Sequence record: OZ556245.1
Origin: a phage
DNA: 64,000 nt
Direction: 5' to 3' (one strand)
Shown piece by piece: positions 2,621 through 56,873 of this stretch (positions are counted from its first letter, which is position 1; every line of letters begins with the position of its first letter). The position numbers and the translations under genes were made by a program. The notes beneath the pieces were generated by a model that ran no database searches, had not been told where the DNA came from, and worked only from the letters and a program-made list of their open reading frames with translations.

Positions 2621-3556
2621 TTTAAATTGTTCAGTAACGTCTTCAACTACTTCGTATTGGCAGGTACGCATTTTAGCATCGTTGTAATCAATCGGAATTG
2701 ATACTACATCACGCGGATGCACTTTAACTTTTACAACTCGACTGGTTGAACTGCCAAAGTGACGAATATAAGATTTAGAACACACATGCAGACCACGAGA
2801 ACAAGTTTGTGTATCATCGTCATTCACACGAGTACGTGGCATTTTAACTACTTTACCAGGACTGTTATCAAAAGTATTTGAATGACAGTCAAAGTAATTG
2901 CTGCGAACTACTTTCCAAGCATAGAAGTAGCCATCTTCTGTAATTTCAATATCGTTTGCTACCAAGAAATCAAAGAGTCGAGATACCGCTTTTTGGCTTG
3001 GGTTTTCCAACAGATTTTCCAAGAACGGAAAATAAAATTCAAAGTTTTCGCCTTTTTCCATCGAATCGAGAATACGATCAACTAAACCAGACCGCAATTC
3101 AATATTTTGATAGAACAAGCTTCCACCTTCAATTCGAACATCACCGGAAATATATTTTTCAACGGCGCGACGAACATTAATTTTTTGTGCCGCTTCTTCC
3201 AATTTATCTGCAACAAGCAGATTAAGAATTTCCTGGAAGTTTGAATGAGTATTAGGAGTTGCGTTATAAGTTACACCATCAACAGTAATTGAAATGAATT
3301 TTTTAGATGCATTCCAAATAATGTCAGATTTAGCAACTGGAGCGATAGTTGTATCGCTATTAACTTTAACCGTAATGTCACCGCTAATGGTAACTTTGGA
3401 ACGCTCAGCTTCTTCAGCATTTTTCAAAACACGACGGATTGTGTCAACCGATACACCTTGCCAATCAGCCAATTCCTGTTGGGTGTAATTACCACTTGAA
3501 TACAGTTTGACAATTTCAGCTTGTTCGTTTTTGGTCAGGCATTTAATATTGTACAT
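2618..3556 (-). CDS. rIIB: rIIB protein (membrane-associated rapid-lysis / exclusion protein)
   Basis: 312 aa, same length as T4 rIIB, immediately downstream of rIIA. Confidence 0.85.
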   Translation of the reverse strand: MYNIKCLTKNEQAEIVKLYSSGNYTQQELADWQGVSVDTIRRVLKNAEEAERSKVTISGDITVKVNSDTTIAPVAKSDIIWNASKKFISITVDGVTYNATPNTHSNFQEILNLLVADKLEEAAQKINVRRAVEKYISGDVRIEGGSLFYQNIELRSGLVDRILDSMEKGENFEFYFPFLENLLENPSQKAVSRLFDFLVANDIEITEDGYFYAWKVVRSNYFDCHSNTFDNSPGKVVKMPRTRVNDDDTQTCSRGLHVCSKSYIRHFGSSTSRVVKVKVHPRDVVSIPIDYNDAKMRTCQYEVVEDVTEQFK

Positions 3557-3567
3557 AATTTTCCTTA

Positions 3568-5745
3568 TTAGGCCGCAAGGGCCTTCATAGTTTTAGCGAT
3601 TTGGGAAACTTCATCATCACTTAAAGAGTTGCGATAACCGATGAAGTCGGAAACAATACGGAATTTCTTGGTAAACTCAGCAACCATTTTATCACTGTTT
3701 TTTGAAGCATTATTTGATAATACATCAAAAAGATTAGTTACTGTCCAGATGTCATGACCGATGGTACCTTTTCCACCGTTGAAATATATACCCTGCAATG
3801 AACTAACCATATTACCAAGGCGAGTATATTCTTCAGAAACTTCATCTACACTGAAGTACTTCATCATAAAATCTAACTCAGGATACTTGATAATTTTATC
3901 AATATATCGTTTAGCTGAACTTGAATAACCTACATACTTATCATAATCTACAGCATCAAAAGCATCTACATATAAATCACGTAGAGTTTCAAAAATACAT
4001 TGGCACTGACCGAGTTCTTTTACCTTTTTCTGCAAAAGCGGACGAATAACATAAAATTCATTAATGCCAATAAGATTAGCCATACGAGTCAAAATACTCG
4101 TAGATGGATGACAAAGCGATGTAGTACCATCCATAGAGAAAATATCAGAACGATGCATGTATGCTACATAACCAGTAATTTCATCTGCTTCTGATGTGAG
4201 TGTAAACAGTTCCTCTTTTTCCCAGCGTCCGTCTTTAATTTCAAACTTAAATGCAGTAGCAGCTTTAGGACGAGGAGCTTTACTTTTAACTACCTTCGGA
4301 ATATAACTTTTAACTAAAGCTTCAATTTCTGACAAATAATGAATGTTAACTTCATCACTTTCAAACATCGCAATAATATCAGGAAGTAAATCAATCTGCG
4401 ATTCTACTTCCGGGTTAATAAACAGAAGACGCTCATTATGATGAATATTTAAAGTGTTATTAAATTCACTATCATCTAACGCATGTGCTAATCCACGGAC
4501 AATATTAACACGATTTTTAATATCATCAATAACGATATTAATTTTTGTTGTATTAATACCGAACAGACGATAGCTTGATGCAACGGCTGAAGTTTCATGG
4601 CTTTGCTTAATGCGTTTCAGTCGAGGGTCAAGATTTACTTCATACACAACCCCTGCATTACATAACTTACTATCAGGTTCAAACATGCTCTGCATCTTCT
4701 TATATGACAAATTTTTAGTCGTGAATTTGACTGAATTACTAATCATATAATCTCGAGCAGAATACCCCATCTTCATCAATTCGCGATATGTGTGACGAGG
4801 AGATGTAGATTCTTTAAATCGTTTTACATCTTCATTAAATGCTTGCTCACTAAGTTCTTTAACTCGTTCAATAATATTTTTACGAGTACGATCATCCAGT
4901 GAAAGAGCCTCGCGAGATGGAGCAATATCAAGTGAACCCATTGGAAACTTAATGTAATTCACTTCATTACGAATGCTTAGCCAGTTACGCTCTCTAATAA
5001 CACCATCAATAGGATAAACAATACCGCCATAGATGGCATACAATCCACCACGATCAGGCCAATATCTTTCTGGATTTACGCCATAGTAGTCATCAAAATC
5101 CGGAAAATAATCAATTTCACGGTCAAGACCATTGATGATAGCCAAATCTTTGAATGGCCGCATGATATAAGAAACTTCATAAGCAAAGTTTCTAAAGTCT
5201 TTTTCTTCAACTGGAACTACGATTTCAATACCAGTTTTATCATCTGGGCCCATTTCTTTTACAAATGTAGGTTTAATTTGTGGACCATCGCCATCCATAT
5301 AAGCTACATAACCACGAATTTCGCCTTTATGATACGAAGTAATACTAAACGTATCAGTATAACTAAATGGAGATTTAGAACCTAAACCAAATCCGCCAAT
5401 GAAATCGTTGGATTCGGCTTTAGATGAACTGAAGTATGAATTATACAGACCAGGAGAATTATCATCACCTTGAATATCAAAATCGCTCATACCCGGACCA
5501 AAATCTCGGCAAACAAATCGCGGATCTAATCGTCCTGGAACTTGAATGATAAATTTTTCATGATTTCCATTGAGAGCATGGGCGTCAATCATGTTGGTAA
5601 TCAATTCACGGACTACTGCGCGAATCTTGTTTGTATACAAATCAGATGACAGAATTTTAAATACTTTAGGAGATGCTGTGATGCTAAATGCTTTTGATTT
5701 AGAACCATTACCAAGAATTGTTTCTTTTTCAGTGGTGATAATCAT
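3568..5745 (-). CDS. rIIA: rIIA protein with N-terminal GHKL-type ATPase fold
   Basis: 725 aa as T4 rIIA; Bergerat N-box ELITNMIDA and DFGPGM G1 box near N-terminus. Confidence 0.9.
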
Positions 5746-5755
5746 AATTTCCTCA

Positions 5756-5959
5756 TTAATTCATATTGCGTTTAATAACTTCAGCAACTTCTAGTAGTTC
5801 ATCTTTAGTTGCGGTGTCGGATTGAATTTTATCTCTAATATCCTTAAAGCGGTTTTTAAACTCTTCGGCTTCTCCCATATCGAAAAAGCGTTGAATGATT
5901 CTATATTCTCGATGAACTGCTTTATCAAAAAGTTCTAAATTTACTTTATATGATTTCAT
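5756..5959 (-). CDS. hypothetical small protein (67 aa), rIIA.1 position
   Basis: ORF track; early promoter just upstream. Confidence 0.5.
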
Positions 5960-5984: not shown

Positions 5985-6014
5985 ATTATACCACATCCTT
6001 GTGGTAAAGTAAAC
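5985..6014 (-). promoter_or_regulatory. early promoter between gene 39 and rIIA region
   Basis: GTTTAC - 17 nt - TGGTATAAT on transcribed strand. Confidence 0.6.
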
Positions 6015-7834
6015 TATTGGCTCATCCATTCTTTACGAAGGTCAGCATTATCTCCCATGAGCATTTCAAAAAGCTCTTTCCAGTTCTCAGGAAGTTTAAC
6101 AACATCATATACTGGGTTTTGAATCATCTCACGGTATTCAGATTTTTCCAAAGAGCCAAGTCCCTTAATATAACGGATGCTATGTTTAGGTAGAGCATCT
6201 TTGGCACTCTCATATTCAGCGACTGTATAAAACCATTCTTGTTTTTTACCGACCTGAGCGATGATTACAGGAGTTTTGACGAAGCGAATTCTTCCTTGTT
6301 CAAACAGTTCTGGCCAATTACTAAAAAATCCGAGCAGAGAAGGATAAATGCTTCCTAGACCATCATGGTCGGCATCGGTCATAATTGCAATATTATGATA
6401 ATTCAAGTTTTCAGCCTTTTCACCAAGAACTAATCCAGTGATTGCGCAAATATCAAACAGTTCTTTGTTTTTAAGCATATCAGCATATGACATACCCCAG
6501 CTGTTAAGAACTTTACCGCGTAATGGATAACCACCATGAAGTTCTTTATCACGAACATCAATAAGATATCCGATAGCCGAATCACCCTCAGTCAAGAAAA
6601 GAGTAGTGTCAGCATCTTTACCACAAAGATTCGCTTTAATATGTTTATGAACCTTAGCTTTAGAAGCCTTTTTAGCTGCTTTAGTTTCTGCTGCCTTTTC
6701 TGCAGCCAATTTACGAGCCAAAGCAGCTTCAATAATTGGCATTAAAATTGCTTCATTGTTTAAAATAGCGCGTGAAATCTTTTTAGCATCAAGCTGAATA
6801 TGACTACGAATTTCACCAAATGGAGAAGTCAAACGCTCTTTAGTTTGAGAATCAAATCGCATGTTTTTCATATCACGAACAAACATGACGATAGTCAAAC
6901 ATTCTTTAACACGTGCTTTAGTTACATCAATTTTGAACTTGCGTTTGATTTGTGGAATAAGGTCTTCACAAATATCATCCATAACACAGTCAATGTGATG
7001 ACCACCATTCTTAGTATGAATGTTATTAACGTATGTTAATTGACGAAAACCATCCGGTGAACGACCAACCGCAATAGAACAATTTTCTTGTTCTTGAACA
7101 ATAGCATGCTCATCATATTGGCGTGCGTATTTCTTAAAATTACCCTGAACCTTTTTACCATTAAAGGTAAATTGAATATCAGGATAAACTACTGCAAGTG
7201 TCTGGAGACGATCTAGTGTAATGTCAAGATAAACTTGAGATAGCTCATTAGTTTCAAATGACATAAAATCAGGAATGAAAGTAACACGTGTTCCTTTCCA
7301 TTTTCCAGGAATATCTTCCCATGATTTATTTTCCATGCCATTTGAACAACGAACTACAATATTATTTTGACCGTCGCCAGTTTCACCGATAAACATCACA
7401 GAAAAAATGTTAGTTAAACTAGAACCAACACCGTTCATACCGCCAGTGACGCGTTCTTTGTCATCACCAAAGTTACCACCTGCTTTTGGAATAGTCCAGG
7501 CAGCAACAGGACCAGGAATTTCTTCACCAGTAGGTGTTTTAACCATCGCTTGTGGAATACCACGACCGTTATCTTCAACTGTTACTTGATTGTTTTTGAT
7601 AGTAACATTAATTTTATTCGCGAATTTAAACTTAGTACGAATACCTTCATCTACCGAGTTATCGATAATTTCATCAATAAGCTTAACAAGACCAGGTACA
7701 TACTGAACACTTTCCCATTTACCAAACAGAAAGCGCTCATGCATTTCATTAGCGGAAGAGCCAATGTACATGCCGCTACGCTTTTTGATATGTTCAATAT
7801 CGCTCAGAATTTTAATTTCATTCTTAATCATCAC
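6014..7834 (-). CDS. 39: DNA topoisomerase II ATPase/TOPRIM subunit, single uninterrupted ORF equivalent to T4 gp39 plus gp60
   Basis: 606 aa; GHKL N-box LIDEIIDNSVDEG, G1 box EDNGRGIP, TOPRIM motifs LTEGDSA and MTDADHDG. Confidence 0.9.
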   Translation of the reverse strand: MMIKNEIKILSDIEHIKKRSGMYIGSSANEMHERFLFGKWESVQYVPGLVKLIDEIIDNSVDEGIRTKFKFANKINVTIKNNQVTVEDNGRGIPQAMVKTPTGEEIPGPVAAWTIPKAGGNFGDDKERVTGGMNGVGSSLTNIFSVMFIGETGDGQNNIVVRCSNGMENKSWEDIPGKWKGTRVTFIPDFMSFETNELSQVYLDITLDRLQTLAVVYPDIQFTFNGKKVQGNFKKYARQYDEHAIVQEQENCSIAVGRSPDGFRQLTYVNNIHTKNGGHHIDCVMDDICEDLIPQIKRKFKIDVTKARVKECLTIVMFVRDMKNMRFDSQTKERLTSPFGEIRSHIQLDAKKISRAILNNEAILMPIIEAALARKLAAEKAAETKAAKKASKAKVHKHIKANLCGKDADTTLFLTEGDSAIGYLIDVRDKELHGGYPLRGKVLNSWGMSYADMLKNKELFDICAITGLVLGEKAENLNYHNIAIMTDADHDGLGSIYPSLLGFFSNWPELFEQGRIRFVKTPVIIAQVGKKQEWFYTVAEYESAKDALPKHSIRYIKGLGSLEKSEYREMIQNPVYDVVKLPENWKELFEMLMGDNADLRKEWMSQ

Positions 7835-7858
7835 TTATCCTCGTTTGGTTTCGGGAAT

Positions 7859-18808: not shown

Positions 18809-19018
18809 TTAAATTACATGACTATTTATAATAAATTCTTGCGGAACGTTAAAATACCCAATTTTAGTTAATATAACAACATCACCGTTAATAATTACCG
18901 GAGAATAATCGGCTGGAGCATTAAACTTCCAATGAGCTCTAATATTATATCCATCAGAACCAAATGCTCGACTAGCCGGTTTCCCGGCTTTTTGCCATGC
19001 ATAAAAATCAAATTTCAT
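18809..19018 (-). CDS. hypothetical small protein (69 aa)
   Basis: ORF track. Confidence 0.45.
   Translation of the reverse strand: MKFDFYAWQKAGKPASRAFGSDGYNIRAHWKFNAPADYSPVIINGDVVILTKIGYFNVPQEFIINSHVI
18823..18830 (-). promoter_or_regulatory. late promoter for soc (TATAAATA)
   Basis: TATAAATA on transcribed strand about 30 nt upstream of soc ATG. Confidence 0.55.
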
Positions 19019-19215
19019 TTTGAATGCTCTATAATTAATTTTAAGGCTTCTTCATGCACCTTACCTAATTGTATATGTCCAGTTTTAATTGTGTAAGCTT
19101 TGTGGAGCTGATTAGATAAGAGCTCACATACGAGCTCTTTGTCATAATTTTTAAATAGCTGGTCAATACGTTTCTTGTGGGCTTTCTTAAGCTGGCGTTT
19201 ATTTAAACGAGCCAT
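19015..19215 (-). CDS. hypothetical small basic protein (66 aa)
   Basis: ORF track. Confidence 0.45.
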   Translation of the reverse strand: MARLNKRQLKKAHKKRIDQLFKNYDKELVCELLSNQLHKAYTIKTGHIQLGKVHEEALKLIIEHSK

Positions 19216-19733
19216 TAATAACCTCGGTCTTGACGAGCGAAGTTTTCAGCATTTTTCAGATAATAAAGTTTAAAGATTTCTTCAGCCGTAAGACCGAGAC
19301 CTTGGAACATGTTCAGAACGAAATGAAGAATATCAATCATTTCGAATTTAATTTCCAACTGGTCTTGTGGAGACAAATCAGTAATCAGAGTTTCACGTCG
19401 TTCACCATGCTGAGCTTTCCAAGGCTTCCATACAGCAGATGCATCTTTTTCACCATTGCTCATACCACCAAGAGAAGTCAATAGTTCGCGGAATTCATCA
19501 TCAATATAATCTTTCTGATTACGCAGCCAATCAACAACTTCACCCGCAGTAGCCAAATCATCAGGATGACGGTTATATTCAGGTTTATCTTTAGCTAAAC
19601 GAACCTGCAGAGATTTCTGCATATCAAGCATAACCTGCAGCGGGTCTTTTTCATCACCGAGAATATCCCAGTATTCATTTTGAGCTTTATCAGCGCCTTC
19701 AATCAGTTGTGAACATTCATTAAAGTATGCCAT
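19215..19733 (-). CDS. 56: dCTP pyrophosphatase (dCTPase/dUTPase, MazG-like)
   Basis: ORF track 19215..19826 trimmed to internal ATG (MAYFNECSQ...) with AAGGAAAAATA SD, giving about 172 aa as T4 gp56. Confidence 0.8.
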   Translation of the reverse strand: MAYFNECSQLIEGADKAQNEYWDILGDEKDPLQVMLDMQKSLQVRLAKDKPEYNRHPDDLATAGEVVDWLRNQKDYIDDEFRELLTSLGGMSNGEKDASAVWKPWKAQHGERRETLITDLSPQDQLEIKFEMIDILHFVLNMFQGLGLTAEEIFKLYYLKNAENFARQDRGY

Positions 19734-19804
19734 TATTTTTCCTTTCAATTCATGGGTTAGTAGATTAATTATACAATAAATATATAAAGCAATAAGGAGG
19801 ATAT

Positions 19805-24219: not shown

Positions 24220-25375
24220 TTAACTGATCTAGGTCAGTTTCTAAATCAGCTGCTGATTTACTTTTGCTTTCTGGAGATTTAAATTTTTCAACCTTTGAGT
24301 TAATCAATTCATCAACTTCAGCTTCAACAATTTCATTACTATCAATAGCACCTAACTGATAAGCACGTTTAATAGCGTCTCGGAATGGTTGATGCTTAAA
24401 TAAAGGACCCCAGAATGTAGTGCAGTTGGTATCTTTTGCACGCCAAGATTTTTCTTCTCGAATCATCTCGCCAGTTTCTTCGTCAAGAAATTCACGAGCA
24501 TACCAGCCATTTTTAGGTTTTACCACAAATCCTAATTCAAGAGCCATATCTAACAATCCAGAATAAGGATCGATACCACCGTCAAATTTAACATCAATAA
24601 AGAATTTACTTTTTTCTTTAACGGTACGAGATTTTTCTACATTTAGAACAAATTGATACCCCTGAAGATCAGAACCATCTTTAATCTGGCGCTTACCGAT
24701 AATGAATACAGTATCAGCCGAATACATTACGCCTGTACCACCTGTCATCACGGTTTTACTGAACATTTCAATTGTTTCAATTGTATGGTTAACCGCAACG
24801 CATGGAATGTTTTTAATACTAAAATAAGGAGTAACAATACGGAATAATGACTTCAGTGATTTAGCACGAGTCATATCTGCCACAGATTTTTCATTCAAGG
24901 CATCTTCCGTTTCTTTCTTAGAAGCCATATTACCGATTGAGTCGATGAATACAATAACTTTTTCACCACGCTCAATAGCTTCAAGCTGATTCACCATATC
25001 AATTTTCAGCTGTTCAACTGACTGAATTGGTGTATGAATTACTCGTTCCGGGTCAACTCCCATGGATCGCAAATAAGCTGGAGTAATACCAAATTCGCTA
25101 TCATAAAATAGACATACCGCGTCAGGATATTTGTTCAAATACGCCGCAACCATAGTCAAAGACATATTTGATTTAAAGTGTTTAGAAGGACCTGCAAAAA
25201 TGGTTAAACCAGACTGCATTCCACCATCAATCGCACCTGAAATAGCGATATTAAGCATTGGGATTTTTGTACGGATTACATCCTTTTCATTAAAGAATTT
25301 AGATGTAGTCAGTTCAGCAGTCATTTTAGAAGTGGAAGCTTTAATCAAACGGGATTTTAAATCTGCAATAGACAT
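24194..25375 (-). CDS. uvsX: UvsX recombinase (RecA/Rad51 family)
   Basis: 393 aa; Walker A GPSKHFKS; acidic C-terminal tail. Confidence 0.9.
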   Translation of the reverse strand: MSIADLKSRLIKASTSKMTAELTTSKFFNEKDVIRTKIPMLNIAISGAIDGGMQSGLTIFAGPSKHFKSNMSLTMVAAYLNKYPDAVCLFYDSEFGITPAYLRSMGVDPERVIHTPIQSVEQLKIDMVNQLEAIERGEKVIVFIDSIGNMASKKETEDALNEKSVADMTRAKSLKSLFRIVTPYFSIKNIPCVAVNHTIETIEMFSKTVMTGGTGVMYSADTVFIIGKRQIKDGSDLQGYQFVLNVEKSRTVKEKSKFFIDVKFDGGIDPYSGLLDMALELGFVVKPKNGWYAREFLDEETGEMIREEKSWRAKDTNCTTFWGPLFKHQPFRDAIKRAYQLGAIDSNEIVEAEVDELINSKVEKFKSPESKSKSAADLETDLDQLSDMEEFNE

Positions 25376-25452
25376 TCATTTTTTCCATAGGCATCATTAT
25401 ATTTTCCTCACTGGTTAAAGATAGAGTAATTATAACACAATAAATTTAGGCA

Positions 25453-26301
25453 TTAATCAACTGCTATTGGATGAATAGCATTAAACTTATGAAACGCTTC
25501 TGATTTTTCTTTGCGCGAAACACACATGCGAAGAACCTTTAATGGCTCGTCTTCTTCACCCAACGATTTTCTCTTTTCAATATTCGATGTTTTCCAACGA
25601 GCTTGCTCTGGAAACTCTCTATTGATTTGCTCAAGAGCTCTATTATGTTTTGAATTACTACGAATTGAACTACATCCGCCAGGAGCCTGTGCTTTTCCAG
25701 ACACAACTAGATATTTGAACAGGGCCAAATGCGGATAACCTTGATTAATTAAATTGAGAAATGCATACATATCTTCGCATAAATCAATTTTTCCATACCC
25801 AATTTGTTCTGTCGTGAGTTTTCCGAGGTCATACCAAGTATTCGTGAATCCATATGAATTTTCACGATAATTACCCCAAGATGAAGTAATTTTAAAAATT
25901 GGTAAACGAGCATGACCATGATAATACCCACAATCCATGGCATCTTCAACGTATTGAATCAATTCATAGAACTGTTCACGAGTTAACTGATTAATTTTAT
26001 CTACGCAGCGACGATCATCTTTCTTTCGCATTGAACTCATACGAATAGTAGTATCATCATCAATCATCCAAATTCGTTGACCTGCATACATATCAGTAAT
26101 TGCTTTACGAGTACCAGCAATTCCATTAACATCATCAGGAATAGTTATAATTTTGGCTCTAGACCCGTAAGCGTCATAATAAGCTTTTTCTTCGTGTTCA
26201 CGTACTACAATATGCGGTTCATAATCAGATGGAAACATATCAAGGGCAGAAACTGCCCCTACGCGTTGATAGCTTGGAATTACGAATTGAATCATTTCCA
26301 C
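25453..26301 (-). CDS. DXD-motif glycosyltransferase at the beta-gt locus (candidate hmC-glucose modifying enzyme)
   Basis: 282 aa; WMIDDDTT DXD motif; sits between uvsX and gene 42 where T4 has beta-glucosyltransferase (351 aa). Confidence 0.6.
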   Translation of the reverse strand: MEMIQFVIPSYQRVGAVSALDMFPSDYEPHIVVREHEEKAYYDAYGSRAKIITIPDDVNGIAGTRKAITDMYAGQRIWMIDDDTTIRMSSMRKKDDRRCVDKINQLTREQFYELIQYVEDAMDCGYYHGHARLPIFKITSSWGNYRENSYGFTNTWYDLGKLTTEQIGYGKIDLCEDMYAFLNLINQGYPHLALFKYLVVSGKAQAPGGCSSIRSNSKHNRALEQINREFPEQARWKTSNIEKRKSLGEEDEPLKVLRMCVSRKEKSEAFHKFNAIHPIAVD

Positions 26302-27032
26302 TCACCGTTATAATCTTTTTTCGCAATATGAGTTTCGCCAGTTTTCCACCAATGGTCAACCAAATAAAAATGACGGGAATACACATGAAGGCTTCCGACA
26401 TTCCATATAATGGAACCTGCTTTATACTGACGAGTTGAATCACCTGCATTCAAATCAGATACTAATTTATCTAGTACGTATTTTTGCCATGCATAATCAT
26501 TACGGAATCCGAAGACCACGTCATTTGAACGCATGCTTACTACTGCATTGACTTTCTTATCACGAATCAGGTACTGTACTGTATTCGTACACATGAAATC
26601 TGACATACCGTCTTTATTGTAGTCAAACTGCATGGATGGACGAGTATAAATCATGATACCACGTCGAGAATCAGGATTTTGACCAAGTTCAGCTAAACAC
26701 ATATCATACTGGGCATAGTTATCTTCTGACCAGATGGCCCAACCATAATTCGAGTTAATTTCGCCTTTAGAAGATGCTACCTGCTGCCAAATCTTCGGTG
26801 TTTCACCCGGAATATCTTTAACAAACAAACTTTTAGATTTATACCATTCAAGTTCATGTTGAATGTATTCATCATTAAGAGCGCCAAAAATAAACGGTTC
26901 ATCTGCTACAAATGATGCACCAATAATTTCAATAGTTTTAACACCAGTTTTATCAACTACGAAATCTTTTTCCTTTAATGCAAGCCCCAAATGAAGACGG
27001 ATTTCTTCAACTGTCATAGAGTCACTAATCAT
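26292..27032 (-). CDS. 42: dCMP hydroxymethylase
   Basis: 246 aa as T4 gp42; position between glycosyltransferase and imm. Confidence 0.85.
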   Translation of the reverse strand: MISDSMTVEEIRLHLGLALKEKDFVVDKTGVKTIEIIGASFVADEPFIFGALNDEYIQHELEWYKSKSLFVKDIPGETPKIWQQVASSKGEINSNYGWAIWSEDNYAQYDMCLAELGQNPDSRRGIMIYTRPSMQFDYNKDGMSDFMCTNTVQYLIRDKKVNAVVSMRSNDVVFGFRNDYAWQKYVLDKLVSDLNAGDSTRQYKAGSIIWNVGSLHVYSRHFYLVDHWWKTGETHIAKKDYNGEWK

Positions 27033-27835: not shown

Positions 27836-28093
27836 TCAAATACAAGTAGTAATTACTCCAGTAGTGCTTACACAGGTATTACCTAATTGAACACCAAGCG
27901 TTCCATTAGTATTCATATGAAGATTATCATCAATTTTTGTTGATACTTTACCATTCATGTGAATAACAGTATTAGATTCAATCACATTCTGAGTGTCATT
28001 TTCAATATCAATAAATGGAACAGCTGCTAATGCAACTAGAACAACTGCTAATGCAACTAAACACGCTGCTAAACAACCATAAACAATTTTCAT
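27836..28093 (-). CDS. small secreted/membrane-anchored protein (85 aa)
   Basis: ORF track 27836..28282 trimmed to ATG after conserved leader; N-terminal hydrophobic segment. Confidence 0.5.
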   Translation of the reverse strand: MKIVYGCLAACLVALAVVLVALAAVPFIDIENDTQNVIESNTVIHMNGKVSTKIDDNLHMNTNGTLGVQLGNTCVSTTGVITTCI

Positions 28094-28123
28094 TTTATTC
28101 TCCAAATCCGTATCAGTTGATAG

Positions 28124-28157
28124 TTGTATAGTACCACGGAAGAACAGGGATGTAAAT
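28124..28157 (-). promoter_or_regulatory. early promoter with conserved leader (cassette copy)
   Basis: ATTTAC ... GGTACTATAC followed by leader ACAACTATCAACTGATACGGATTTGGAGAAT. Confidence 0.5.
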
Positions 28158-28243
28158 AGTTTTGTGAAAAAATTTTTAATGAATTTACAGGACCTAGAAT
28201 CATCTATTTTTATTAAGTATAGATTTATATTACTTGTATGAAA

Positions 28244-37702: not shown

Positions 37703-38903
37703 ATTTTGTAATAATGTCAAACTGTTCTTTAAAGCAGAAGCTTGAATCTTGATGCTGATACAAAAATTCATAAGCTTTTTCGCGTTCACGGTCATAAAGA
37801 GCTCGGTCAGATGACAGTTCTTTAATACGTTCAAATGTTGATTCCATGTCATTTTCATCAAACCAAACGATACCGCTATCATGAGAAATTAACGGAGTAT
37901 TATCAACACGGAATTTTAAATTTTCGCCAGTAGATTTCCAAAATACCGGAATTGTTCCACACGCACCAAGCTCGAGATGAGTATATTCTAAAGAACGTTG
38001 TAGATATTTTTTATCCAACTTACTCAGCTGATAACCAAATCCGGATTTACTCATGCGTTCAAGCATTTCGCTATTTACATAACGGTCGAGAATTTGCGTC
38101 GGCAAATTAGGAGCAATTTTAATTTGGTCTACTTGATGAAGACGATAATATTCGTATGGAATTCCTTTTTCTTTAATAGGAATGAACGCTGGAGAACGTT
38201 CCAGACCTTCCATAATAGTACTTAATCCCGCAGGTTTAAGATGTTTTTCGTGAAAATCAAACATCTGATAAAAACCTTTCCATGTAGTCGTACGACCGAT
38301 CCAACGGTTGACATTCATATTAATTTCAGAAACATCTTTCCAGTAGGTTGATCGAACCTTCGCAATATCCATAGGAGGCTGAAAGTTGTATACAGTCGGT
38401 GCTTCTTCAATATCATCAAACAGAGAAACTGTTTCTGGATACCATTCTTTCATCAAAACTTTATTAAAATCGCCATTATCAGAATGACTAAAAATAACAT
38501 CAGCTCGACGAACAGTTTCTTCTAATCCCAAATTTCGGCGCAAAGAAAGAGAAGAATGGTCATGTTGATAAACTACAACACGAACCGAAGGTTTAATGTT
38601 ATCAATAATTTTTTTATAGTTATTAATAGTGTCTTCTTCGACTGAAGTAGCAGGAACTGAATTGATAATTAGAATATCACAATCATTTACCAGCTTAAGT
38701 GTTTTATCGTATTCTTTTGCCAATAAAACCGGAATTGAAAATGATTTATAATCATGCGCACAATTACGGGTAAATGATTTATCTTTAGCATAAACCAAAG
38801 TTACTTCATGACCATTTTTAATAAACCAATCACGTTGCTCGAGAGAAAATTTAGTTACGCCGCAACCTTCAAGACCTCGAGCCATAAAAATGCATACTTT
38901 CAT
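37701..38903 (-). CDS. agt: DNA alpha-glucosyltransferase
   Basis: 400 aa as T4 alpha-gt; between gene 47 and gene 55. Confidence 0.8.
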   Translation of the reverse strand: MKVCIFMARGLEGCGVTKFSLEQRDWFIKNGHEVTLVYAKDKSFTRNCAHDYKSFSIPVLLAKEYDKTLKLVNDCDILIINSVPATSVEEDTINNYKKIIDNIKPSVRVVVYQHDHSSLSLRRNLGLEETVRRADVIFSHSDNGDFNKVLMKEWYPETVSLFDDIEEAPTVYNFQPPMDIAKVRSTYWKDVSEINMNVNRWIGRTTTWKGFYQMFDFHEKHLKPAGLSTIMEGLERSPAFIPIKEKGIPYEYYRLHQVDQIKIAPNLPTQILDRYVNSEMLERMSKSGFGYQLSKLDKKYLQRSLEYTHLELGACGTIPVFWKSTGENLKFRVDNTPLISHDSGIVWFDENDMESTFERIKELSSDRALYDREREKAYEFLYQHQDSSFCFKEQFDIITK

Positions 38904-38927
38904 TTAATATCCTCATTGTTTTGGTTT

Positions 38928-42943: not shown

Positions 42944-43414
42944 TTAATCATGTTTCCACACCCCATCGGTATTTGACCAAAGTCGCTGATTATCTGATCC
43001 TCGCCACAGCTTTTTGGTCGGAAGATTTTTCTCATACTTCCCATCAATAATAACATCAACATATTTAAGCATTTCTAGTTGTTTAATATCCTCAAACTTA
43101 TATCCTGTCCACAACCAAATGCTTTTATTTGGATAAAGATTTTTTACTGTTTGAACAATGCAATGAATAACATCTCGGTTATCAGGATAGAGAGGGTCTC
43201 CTCCAGTTATAGTCAATCCTTCTATATAATCATTATTCAAACATTCAATTAATTGTTCCAGTGTTTCACCAGTGAATGGAACGCCATTTCTAGCATTCCA
43301 TGTTGATTTATTATAACACCCTTCGCATTTATGCAAACAACCTGTAACGAAAAGAACGACCCTGCATCCAGGGCCATTCACAAAATCACAAGGATAAAAT
43401 CTATCATAATTCAT
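42944..43414 (-). CDS. nrdG: anaerobic ribonucleotide reductase activating protein NrdG (radical SAM)
   Basis: 156 aa; CLHKCEGC radical-SAM cysteine motif. Confidence 0.85.
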   Translation of the reverse strand: MNYDRFYPCDFVNGPGCRVVLFVTGCLHKCEGCYNKSTWNARNGVPFTGETLEQLIECLNNDYIEGLTITGGDPLYPDNRDVIHCIVQTVKNLYPNKSIWLWTGYKFEDIKQLEMLKYVDVIIDGKYEKNLPTKKLWRGSDNQRLWSNTDGVWKHD

Positions 43415-45228
43415 CGGTGTTTAACCCTATGCATGATTTCTTTATTTTTTCCAAGATTAAATCCGCGTTCATTCGGATTTCCCAAATAACCACAAGTTCT
43501 TCTTATTGTGTTCATCTTTTTAGGATCAGTTTCTCCACAAATAGAACAAACAAACCCGTTTTCAGTAGGAGTCATTTCATGGGTACTTCCGCATGTAAAA
43601 CATTTATCTACTGGCATATTAACACCAAAATAATCTAAATGTTGTGCAGCATAATCCCATACAGCCTCAAGACCTTTTAGGTTATTTTTCATATCAGGAA
43701 GTTCAACATAAGAAATGTGACCACCTGTCGCAATGAAATGATATGGGGCTTCGCGAGAAATCTTTTCAAACGGAGTAATATTTTCTTCTACTGAAACATG
43801 GAAACTATTAGTGTACCAGCCTTTATCAGTAACATCCTTTACACTTCCATATTTCTCAGTATCAAGTTTACAGAAGCGATAGCACAGGTTTTCAGCAGGA
43901 GTAGAATACAAGCTAAAAGCAAAACCGGTTCTTTCAGTCCACTGCTTAAGACGAGCATTCATTTTAGTTAAAATTTCCTGTCCAATATCACGACCGACAA
44001 GAATATTCAATTCGTGAATACCAATGTATCCTAAGGACACTGAACTTCTACCGTTTTTAAATAACTCAATTATGTCGTCATCAGGTTTAAGACGAACCCC
44101 AAATGCACCTTCTTGGTAAAGAATAGGAGCAACAGTCGCTTTAACTCCTTTTAAGGAACTAATTCTACACATCAAAGCTTCAAAACACAAATCCATTCGT
44201 TCATTGAACAATTCAGCAAATTTCTGTTCATTGAACTGTGTTCCAATATAAGAATCTAACGCAATGCGAGGAAGATTCAGTGTTACAACGCCAAGATTAT
44301 TACGTCCATCAAGAATTTCATTACCAGTCGAATCTTTCCATACGCTCAAGAAACTACGGCAACCCATTGGAGAAACAGGAATAGATGAGCCGGTGATAAC
44401 TTTATTGTTCTTAGCTGAAATAATATCAGGATACATTCTTTTGCTTGCACACTCTAAAGCAAGCTGCTTAATATCATAGTTCGGATCGTCCTTATAAAGA
44501 TTAACACCTTCTTCAACGAACATAACAAGTTTAGGGAAAATAGGAGTTATCCCATCACGGCCAAGGCCTTTAATACGATTTTTCAGAATTGCTTTCTGAA
44601 TCATTCGTTCAGTCCAGTCAGTTCCCGTACCAAATGTAATTGTTACAAAAGGCGTTTGTCCGTTTGAACTAAAGAGAGTATTTACTTCATATTCATAAGC
44701 TTGGAATGCATCGTATACGTCTTTTTCTGTTTTAGATTGGGCATAATTCAATGCATCGGCGATTTGCCATTTTTCTGCATCCTCAATATGTTTTGCATAG
44801 GTGCGTTTAACATAAGGAGAAAGTACTTTATCTACATTCGCAAAAGTCGTTCCGCCATATTGATGAGAAGCAACCTGCGCAGTAATTTGTGCCATAATTG
44901 CAGTAGCAACGCCGATTGATTTAGGAGTTTCAATCTGCGCATTACCGAGCTTAAATCCGTTCTCAAGCATTCCTTTTAAATCTACTAAACAGCAATTAGT
45001 AAATGGAAGAGCAGGGGAATAATCAATATCGTGGAAATGGATAATTCCGCTTTCATGCGCTTTCATAATAAAAGACGGGACCATATTTTTGGCAATGTGT
45101 TTAGACACAATACCAGCCATAAGGTCCCGTTGAGTTGGAAAAACACGAGAATCTTTATTAGCATTCTCGTTTAAAAGGTCTTTATTAGTTTTATGAATCA
45201 ATCCTTCAATTTCTTTTTCAATTGTCAT
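43411..45228 (-). CDS. nrdD: anaerobic ribonucleoside-triphosphate reductase NrdD, uninterrupted
   Basis: 605 aa; C-terminal glycyl-radical motif RRTCGY and zinc ribbon CFTCG...CSICG. Confidence 0.9.
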   Translation of the reverse strand: MTIEKEIEGLIHKTNKDLLNENANKDSRVFPTQRDLMAGIVSKHIAKNMVPSFIMKAHESGIIHFHDIDYSPALPFTNCCLVDLKGMLENGFKLGNAQIETPKSIGVATAIMAQITAQVASHQYGGTTFANVDKVLSPYVKRTYAKHIEDAEKWQIADALNYAQSKTEKDVYDAFQAYEYEVNTLFSSNGQTPFVTITFGTGTDWTERMIQKAILKNRIKGLGRDGITPIFPKLVMFVEEGVNLYKDDPNYDIKQLALECASKRMYPDIISAKNNKVITGSSIPVSPMGCRSFLSVWKDSTGNEILDGRNNLGVVTLNLPRIALDSYIGTQFNEQKFAELFNERMDLCFEALMCRISSLKGVKATVAPILYQEGAFGVRLKPDDDIIELFKNGRSSVSLGYIGIHELNILVGRDIGQEILTKMNARLKQWTERTGFAFSLYSTPAENLCYRFCKLDTEKYGSVKDVTDKGWYTNSFHVSVEENITPFEKISREAPYHFIATGGHISYVELPDMKNNLKGLEAVWDYAAQHLDYFGVNMPVDKCFTCGSTHEMTPTENGFVCSICGETDPKKMNTIRRTCGYLGNPNERGFNLGKNKEIMHRVKHR

Positions 45229-54599: not shown

Positions 54600-54745
54600 T
54601 GATTCTGCTCCAAATATGTTTCTATAATTTTCTGAGCGAGATAAACTGCGTTATCTTCAGTTGCATCTTCTAAGAAATTTTCAAAATAAACTGAAATTTC
54701 TTCTGTGTCAATCAACTTTTTTACTTCAATTAACGTAGTTTTCAT
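54596..54745 (-). CDS. small acidic protein (49 aa)
   Basis: hand-translated MKTTLIEVKKLIDTEEISVYFENFLEDATEDNAVYLAQKIIETYLEQNQ; ATG directly after conserved leader GGGGAATAAA; stop overlaps next ATG. Confidence 0.4.
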   Translation of the reverse strand: MKTTLIEVKKLIDTEEISVYFENFLEDATEDNAVYLAQKIIETYLEQNQ

Positions 54746-54777
54746 TTTATTCCCCAAATCCGTATCAGTTGATAGTT

Positions 54778-54809
54778 GTATAGTACCATAAAGCTTTATG
54801 CTTGTAAAC
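54778..54809 (-). promoter_or_regulatory. early promoter with conserved leader (cassette copy)
   Basis: GTTTAC ... GGTACTATAC plus leader ending GGGGAATAAA. Confidence 0.5.
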
Positions 54810-54839
54810 CGTTTTGTGAAAAAATTTTGAAATAAAAAA

Positions 54840-55873: not shown

Positions 55874-56355
55874 TCAGCCTTATATTCAATAACAGGACAT
55901 ACTTTAGCTTTACGCGCTTTTAAAAATTCGACGATAATAGATTTCTTGGGTTGAATAGGCTCAAGTCCATTTTTGATTCGTTCTTCGTTTTGTACAATGA
56001 GCTCAATTTCTTTATTGAGCTTTCGGTCGTTATATTTGTCTAACAACCAGGAAGGACCAATTACCGCCCCGACAGCAATAAGAACCATGACCGATAATGC
56101 TAAAATGCCTATACCAATTGAAGCCGGAACTAATGTCCATAGGCTACTAAAGACAAAGAATTTAATTAAAATTTCTTGGCCAATTATTGCGGTACCCGCT
56201 AAAGTTGCAAATCCAACAATTGAAACAGCTAATACCGGGAGAAACGTTTTCCAAAAATAAGCACATAACGTTTTTGGACGATTCCATGTGCTGTTAAATG
56301 CCGAGTAAATTTTATAGTGCCAAGAGTTTTCATTAATAACCATAATTATAATCAT
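55870..56355 (-). CDS. integral membrane protein (161 aa)
   Basis: multiple hydrophobic helices. Confidence 0.5.
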   Translation of the reverse strand: MIIIMVINENSWHYKIYSAFNSTWNRPKTLCAYFWKTFLPVLAVSIVGFATLAGTAIIGQEILIKFFVFSSLWTLVPASIGIGILALSVMVLIAVGAVIGPSWLLDKYNDRKLNKEIELIVQNEERIKNGLEPIQPKKSIIVEFLKARKAKVCPVIEYKAE

Positions 56356-56873
56356 CCTTTCATTGAAGGTGTAACAGTTGTTAAATACTTAATCATAGCT
56401 TCAGCTTCTGATTTTGATAATGAAATTTCTCCATTGTTTTGACGAATAGAAATAAAATCCGGATGACGGTCACCACCAGCTTTTAAAACACACATATAAG
56501 TATCAGTTTCATCTTCAATATCTGAAATGATTGAAGCAGTTCCACATGAATGTGGTTTTTGATAAATCAATGCAGCTTTTCTTCCACCGTTTGACTGTTC
56601 ATAAACTTTTAACACATCAAACAAATCACTTCTTTTGTCAATAGCTAAGATGTTGTTTTCATCTTCAATGTTAAATCCTTCGGATACTTCATAAAGTGTC
56701 ACCCATAAATCACCTATATCAATAACAGCGTTCACTTTTCCATGACTTTCAAGAGCATGACAAATTTTCTTGATTTCATCATAACTCATTTTAATAATAT
56801 CATCTCCTTGAATAAGAAAGATGTCATTTTTAAATTCAACACGAATTAAACCGCTTTCACTTGAAATAAACAT
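56352..56873 (-). CDS. hypothetical protein (173 aa), paralog of next gene
   Basis: C-terminal SKSEAEAMIKYLTTVTPSM matches TKDEAIALKTYLDSVIPTM in 56880..57443. Confidence 0.5.
   Translation of the reverse strand: MFISSESGLIRVEFKNDIFLIQGDDIIKMSYDEIKKICHALESHGKVNAVIDIGDLWVTLYEVSEGFNIEDENNILAIDKRSDLFDVLKVYEQSNGGRKAALIYQKPHSCGTASIISDIEDETDTYMCVLKAGGDRHPDFISIRQNNGEISLSKSEAEAMIKYLTTVTPSMKG

Follow-up and report, generated by a model that had tools for sequence, protein, structure and literature searches.

The stretch of DNA analysed here (64 kb, referred to as the window) is, judging from its sequence, a segment of a Tequatrovirus (T-even) genome. The best match to the whole window is Escherichia phage UGKSEcP2, at 97.8% identity over 25 kb, and the locus of interest is the canonical T-even block rIIB / rIIA / rIIA.1 / 39 / 39.1, with a gene order that is the same in T4, T2, T6, and UGKSEcP2. 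The features that define the locus are as follows.

3568..5745, minus strand: rIIA, 725 aa, by which the locus is recognized as the T-even rIIA / rIIA.1 / 39 block (open reading frame; comparison with relatives)
5756..5959, minus strand: rIIA.1 homologue, the downstream neighbour of gene 39 (open reading frame; position shared with T4 rIIA.1 and with the equivalent CDS of relatives)
6014..7831, minus strand: gene 39 CDS, topoisomerase II large (GyrB-like) subunit, 605 aa plus stop (open reading frame; comparison with T2 and T6; PDB 8ylu_C)
7832..7842, minus strand: ribosome-binding region, GAGGATAAGTG (upstream sequence shared with T4 gene 39)

A preliminary description of this DNA had reported a topoisomerase subunit encoded by a 606-aa open reading frame at 6014-7834 and had left the strand unstated; the strand is minus. 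The program-made list of reading frames does count 606 codons from a GTG in the interval 6014..7834, and with stop trinucleotides at a frequency of 0.072 in the window (7.2% of the strand), the chance of 606 stop-free codons is ~2e-20, so the reading frame is real. The length required correction. Upstream of gene 39 lies a Shine-Dalgarno sequence, GAGGA, in a stretch that runs ...GAGGATAAGTG and is followed by ATG at 7831, and the 44 nt located 5' of this ATG do not differ from the sequence that precedes T4 gene 39, for which ATG is the annotated start. A CDS of 1818 nt is annotated for gene 39 in T2, in T6, and in the closest database relative. We therefore rejected the GTG at 7834-7832, which lies within the spacer that separates the ATG from the Shine-Dalgarno sequence, and assign the start to ATG 7831 and a length of 605 aa to the protein. 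A scan for promoters and terminators around gene 39 returned sites no more numerous than in shuffled sequences.

Domains and predicted function of the 605-aa subunit

Four domains were delimited in the gene 39 protein (gp39), given here in order from the N-terminus.

7385..7693, minus strand: GHKL ATPase domain, aa 47-149, with N-box, G1, and G2 (Pfam HATPase_c)
6680..7084, minus strand: transducer domain, aa 250-384, with the QTK loop (Pfam DNA_gyraseB)
6356..6604, minus strand: TOPRIM domain, aa 410-492 (sub-threshold Pfam Toprim match and structure alignments)
6020..6277, minus strand: TOPRIM-associated C-terminal domain, aa 519-604 (Pfam TOPRIM_C)

The HATPase_c match scored 38.1 bits (cut-off 26.4), and the domain contains an N-box (EIIDNSVDE, aa 54-62), a G1 box (DNGRGIP, aa 87-93), and a G2 box (GGMNGVGSS, aa 130-138). 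The transducer scored 51.1 bits against DNA_gyraseB (cut-off 27) and carries the QTK loop, DSQTKERL, at aa 327-334, with the QTK-loop lysine present. The Pfam Toprim match reached 17.5 bits, which is under the gathering score of 23.1; the same region aligns end to end with the solved structures of Topo II, ParE, and T6 gp39 and contains both TOPRIM motifs, LTEGDSA at aa 413-419 and TDADHDG at aa 485-491, which supply the glutamate and the DxDxD. The C-terminal domain scored 30.6 bits against TOPRIM_C (cut-off 29). The presence of GHKL ATPase and TOPRIM motifs in a single reading frame, as originally proposed, was thus borne out by the Pfam domains and by all six signature motifs. This combination does not by itself distinguish the protein from its T4 counterpart, since the T4 split falls inside TOPRIM: T4 gp39 likewise carries GHKL and half of TOPRIM, with EGDSA in gp39 and DADHDG in gp60, whereas in the window the two motifs are contiguous. 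The real architectural distinction from T4 is the continuous TOPRIM domain, not the joint occurrence of GHKL and TOPRIM in one reading frame.

The single 605-aa polypeptide is the GyrB-like large subunit of a phage type IIA DNA topoisomerase. By analogy with characterized enzymes, the GHKL domain would bind and hydrolyze ATP and dimerize to form the N-gate, and the transducer would link ATP turnover to the DNA gate. The acidic residues of TOPRIM, E416 and D486/D488/D490, are predicted to hold Mg2+ for cleavage by gp52, the catalytic tyrosine of which would cleave and religate the DNA. The holoenzyme would be a gp39(2)gp52(2) heterotetramer that relaxes DNA with the use of ATP. We infer ATP-dependent strand passage and this quaternary structure from the published work on T6 and T2 and from knowledge of type IIA enzymes in general; T6 gp39 and gp52 together form an active enzyme with ATP-dependent relaxation activity, and structures have been solved (PMC11461880). 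Gene 52 is not in the 64-kb window, where T4 gp52 gave no tblastn match. In the closest relative, gene 52 is located ~0.6-1.9 kb past window position 1, and in the source phage the gene is expected just outside the window.

The segment that is interrupted in T4

T4 genes 39 and 60 encode the same enzyme subunit at the same genomic locus as gene 39 of the window. The comparisons that had been suggested, with T4 gp39, T4 gp60, and T2 gp39, were all carried out. With blastp, residues 1-473 matched residues 1-473 of T4 gp39 at 98.3% identity, and residues 472-605 matched residues 27-160 of gp60 at 95.5% identity (E=3e-95), while T2 gp39 showed only 2 amino acid differences over 605 aa (nucleotide identity 95.5%). 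The expected homology of the C-terminus to gp60 is therefore present, although it spans 134 residues of gp60 and not 160. Only these 134 residues have a counterpart because the remainder of gp60 is encoded by an inserted element, which specifies the first ~26-30 aa of gp60 as well as the last 43 aa of T4 gp39. No residues homologous to T4 gp39 474-516 or to gp60 1-26 were found in the reading frame of the window.

The position of the T4 insertion was delimited at the DNA level. Two blocks identified by blastn are collinear with T4, window positions 8152-6414 with T4 5650-3911, and window positions 6349-5706 with T4 2793-2150. Between these blocks, by blastn and hand alignment, 64 nt of the window (6350-6413) stand against 1117 nt of T4 (2794-3910).

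6350..6413, minus strand: empty MobA-element site, 64 nt, aa 473-494, ...AENLNYHNIAIMTDADHDGLGS (blastn blocks and hand alignment)

The 1117-nt insert of T4 holds the 43-aa tail of gp39, a remnant of mobA (a pseudogene), and 60.1, together with the start of gene 60, which provides the new N-terminus of gp60, a diverged copy of the replaced segment, and the annotated 50-nt gap. This content agrees with the published anatomy of the MobA element, which consists of a C-terminal extension, an endonuclease, an N-terminal extension with a homologous region, and a bypass cassette; the element deletes 64 nt of its target, in agreement with the size of the window site (bioRxiv 10.1101/2022.08.31.505936). 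The 64-nt segment of the window differs from that of T2 at 3 nt and from that of T6 at 5 nt, and is identical to the insert-borne copy of T4 at only 38/57 positions. Judged by these sequence comparisons, the segment is of the uninvaded (parental) type.

At the bypass site, the window reads GAT GGT CTA GGA AGC, in frame and straight through. T4 instead reads GAT GGA, then TAG CCTTCGGGCTA... for 50 nt, and then TTA GGT TCT. Hand alignment and folding of the gene 39 junction of the window revealed neither a take-off site (GGA-TAG) nor a UUCG hairpin, and the 50-nt gap is likewise missing. The take-off stem-loop of T4 forms the expected 10-bp stem and UUCG loop, whereas the equivalent stretch of the window folds no better than shuffled sequences (z = -0.75). 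The T4 hairpin motif had no match in the whole 64-kb window with up to 3 mismatches allowed, and neither 60.1 nor the T4 fragment of MobA, an HNH homing endonuclease, had a tblastn match in the window. We also considered a hidden recoding or bypass signal in gene 39 and rejected it, as folding and the motif search were both empty. The initial claim that the gene contains no split or bypass element holds for the 605-aa reading frame, in which there is no gap, take-off stop, or hairpin.

The MobA element and the history of the gene

We consider it about 97% probable that this reading frame is gene 39 of a Tequatrovirus phage, an uninterrupted topoisomerase large subunit gene in a genome free of the MobA element, and the sequence offers no argument to the contrary. 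Among its relatives, T4 and a minority of others have had 64 nt in the TOPRIM coding region replaced with ~1.1 kb by a MobA homing-endonuclease element, and this insertion divided the gene into 39 and 60 and added the 50-nt bypass gap. Gene 39 of the window is uninterrupted because the phage is without this homing-endonuclease element.

The frequency of the uninterrupted gene was estimated with a 181-nt probe across the junction, where a contiguous match with at least 80% coverage was scored as uninterrupted. The junction was uninterrupted by this definition in 466/508 phage records (~92%), and phage H93 was 100% identical over the 181 nt. The remaining records matched one flank only; HY03, a known carrier of MobA, is an example. 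In a separate search the T4 1117-nt insert was found in 43 phage records. A count of 500 records at 80% coverage or more was discarded as a total for the unsplit gene, as that search joins pieces up to 1750 nt apart and split genomes are therefore counted. The uninterrupted gene 39 is the majority state among sequenced relatives. The preliminary description had presented the unsplit gene as a feature reported for T2/T6-type phages; T2 and T6 do match, but the state is no peculiarity of theirs.

Two other origins for the continuous reading frame were weighed. The gene could once have been split by MobA and later re-fused upon loss of the endonuclease along with the bypass cassette. Secondary fusions do occur in other clades, namely in some lineages of Campylobacter phages (bioRxiv 10.1101/2022.08.31.505936), and the window is otherwise ~95% identical to T4 on both flanks. 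Against this, the re-fused genes that have been described retain C- and N-terminal extensions amounting to ~70 extra amino acids, whereas the window protein is exactly 605 aa with none extra, and its 64-nt segment belongs to the parental type, close to T2 and far from the T4 copy. Re-fusion is therefore very improbable. A precise reversion through recombination with an uninvaded phage would be traceless and indistinguishable, so that it may have occurred, and would yield the same gene. That the continuous frame is an assembly artefact (a collapsed repeat-free insertion) or a phage chimera is scarcely credible: the window is identical to no deposited genome (97.8% over 25 kb at best), which is nothing specific, whereas the same uninterrupted junction recurs in 466 independent phage records, including the perfect match in H93, the frame is unbroken, and T2 and T6 gp39 are nearly identical to the protein.

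Returning to the uninvaded gene 39, the state described here is already known: the gene encodes a T-even replication enzyme of the textbook kind and has the ancestral form, which is also that of the majority. That the T6 39-protein is equivalent to T4 39 plus 60 has been on record since 1985 (Huang, Wei and Casjens, as cited in PMC11461880). The MobA/bypass cassette was described as a mobile element in 2011 and surveyed in 2022 (bioRxiv 10.1101/2022.08.31.505936). With structures already solved for a 3-residue variant, T6 gp39, the gene has little discovery value and serves as context.

We also considered whether the small number of synonymous changes within the 64 nt that MobA targets (3 relative to T2) might confer natural resistance to homing without the bypass insert. 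If true, this would represent an alternative route to immunity; we regard it as decidedly unlikely. Natural resistance finds no support in the present analysis. MobA nicking has been demonstrated for T2, and published work summarized in the 2022 preprint indicates that nicking was not prevented by polymorphisms of far greater divergence (bioRxiv 10.1101/2022.08.31.505936). The source phage, which is without the MobA cassette and presumably susceptible to it, would be a convenient naive recipient for homing experiments, given also the general lack of T4 homing endonucleases in the window.

This lack extends over the region covered by the window. All of the homing-endonuclease insertions of T4 in this region are missing, namely mobA, segF, segA, mobB, mobC, the I-TevII intron in nrdD, and mobD, and the T4 homing-endonuclease proteins gave no tblastn matches in the 64 kb. 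The endonuclease-free sites are at 6350-6413, ~18831-19251, 25364-26309, ~38895-38918, ~43394-43415, ~44690-44693, and 55875-56854. The source phage is a mobile-element-poor T-even phage, like T2 and T6.

Other differences from T4 were observed near these sites. Gene 56 (dCTPase, 19252-19773) has 77% DNA identity to T4, compared with 93-96% for the neighboring genes, and adjoins the site of T4 segF; this is in line with the known divergence of gene 56 between T-even phages that bear segF and those that do not. The gene for the dam adenine methyltransferase, ~0.9 kb in T4, is missing, and 20 nt (19774-19793) lie between the homology blocks of genes 56 and 61. The dam gene was found in only 184 phage records, and the junction of genes 56 and 61 without dam is matched in full by the closest relatives and is common among relatives, so that it appears ordinary. 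T4 beta-glucosyltransferase is absent from the window. At 25364-26309, segA and the beta-glucosyltransferase gene of T4 (1941 nt) are replaced by 946 nt of unrelated sequence, which is annotated in the closest relative as a beta-glucosyl-HMC-alpha-glucosyltransferase, an enzyme that we take to be of the T2/T6 glucosylation type. An alpha-gt of the T4 type is located at 37704-38903, with 90.8% amino acid identity.

Three copies of a conserved ~90-nt cassette occur on the minus strand, at ~1453-1541, 28086-28179, and 54739-54833. Each carries an early promoter and a leader; the promoter elements are a -35-like GTTTACA and a -10-like TGGTAcTATA, and the leader, ACAACTATCAACTGATACGGATTTGGAGAATAAAATG, is invariant and leads into different reading frames. 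A GC-rich stem-loop, GGGAGCCTTCGGGCTCCC, precedes one of the copies. The cassettes match several intergenic sites of T4, and they resemble the promoter-early stem-loop (PeSL) cassettes known from T4-type phages.

Comparison with phage and cellular type IIA topoisomerases

The T2 and T6 genes agree with that of the window in the 605-aa length, in their neighbors, in the context of the start codon, and in having a TOPRIM region without interruption. T2 gp39 differs from the window protein by two conservative changes, F70L and I148V, and T6 gp39 by three, I148V, D173T, and Q526H, and both genes additionally show synonymous changes. Nucleotide identity to T6 is 96.2%. Among solved structures, the best match was chain C of PDB 8ylu, aligned over its full length at 1385 bits, which is gp39 of the T6 topoisomerase II (PMC11461880). 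The next was an engineered fusion of T4 gp39 and gp60, which aligned in two blocks, aa 1-473 and aa 472-605, and was followed by eukaryotic Topo II, ParE, and GyrB.

Alignments to cellular enzymes also run the full length of the window protein, both with human Topo II alpha and beta (E ~1e-59) and with yeast Topo II and ParE. The B modules of cellular type IIA enzymes, in GyrB, ParE, and the N-terminal half of eukaryotic Topo II, share with the phage protein the domain order GHKL, transducer, TOPRIM, and tail, and the phage subunit is shorter than these modules. Its sequence scores place it nearer to eukaryotic Topo II and to Topo IV than to gyrase.
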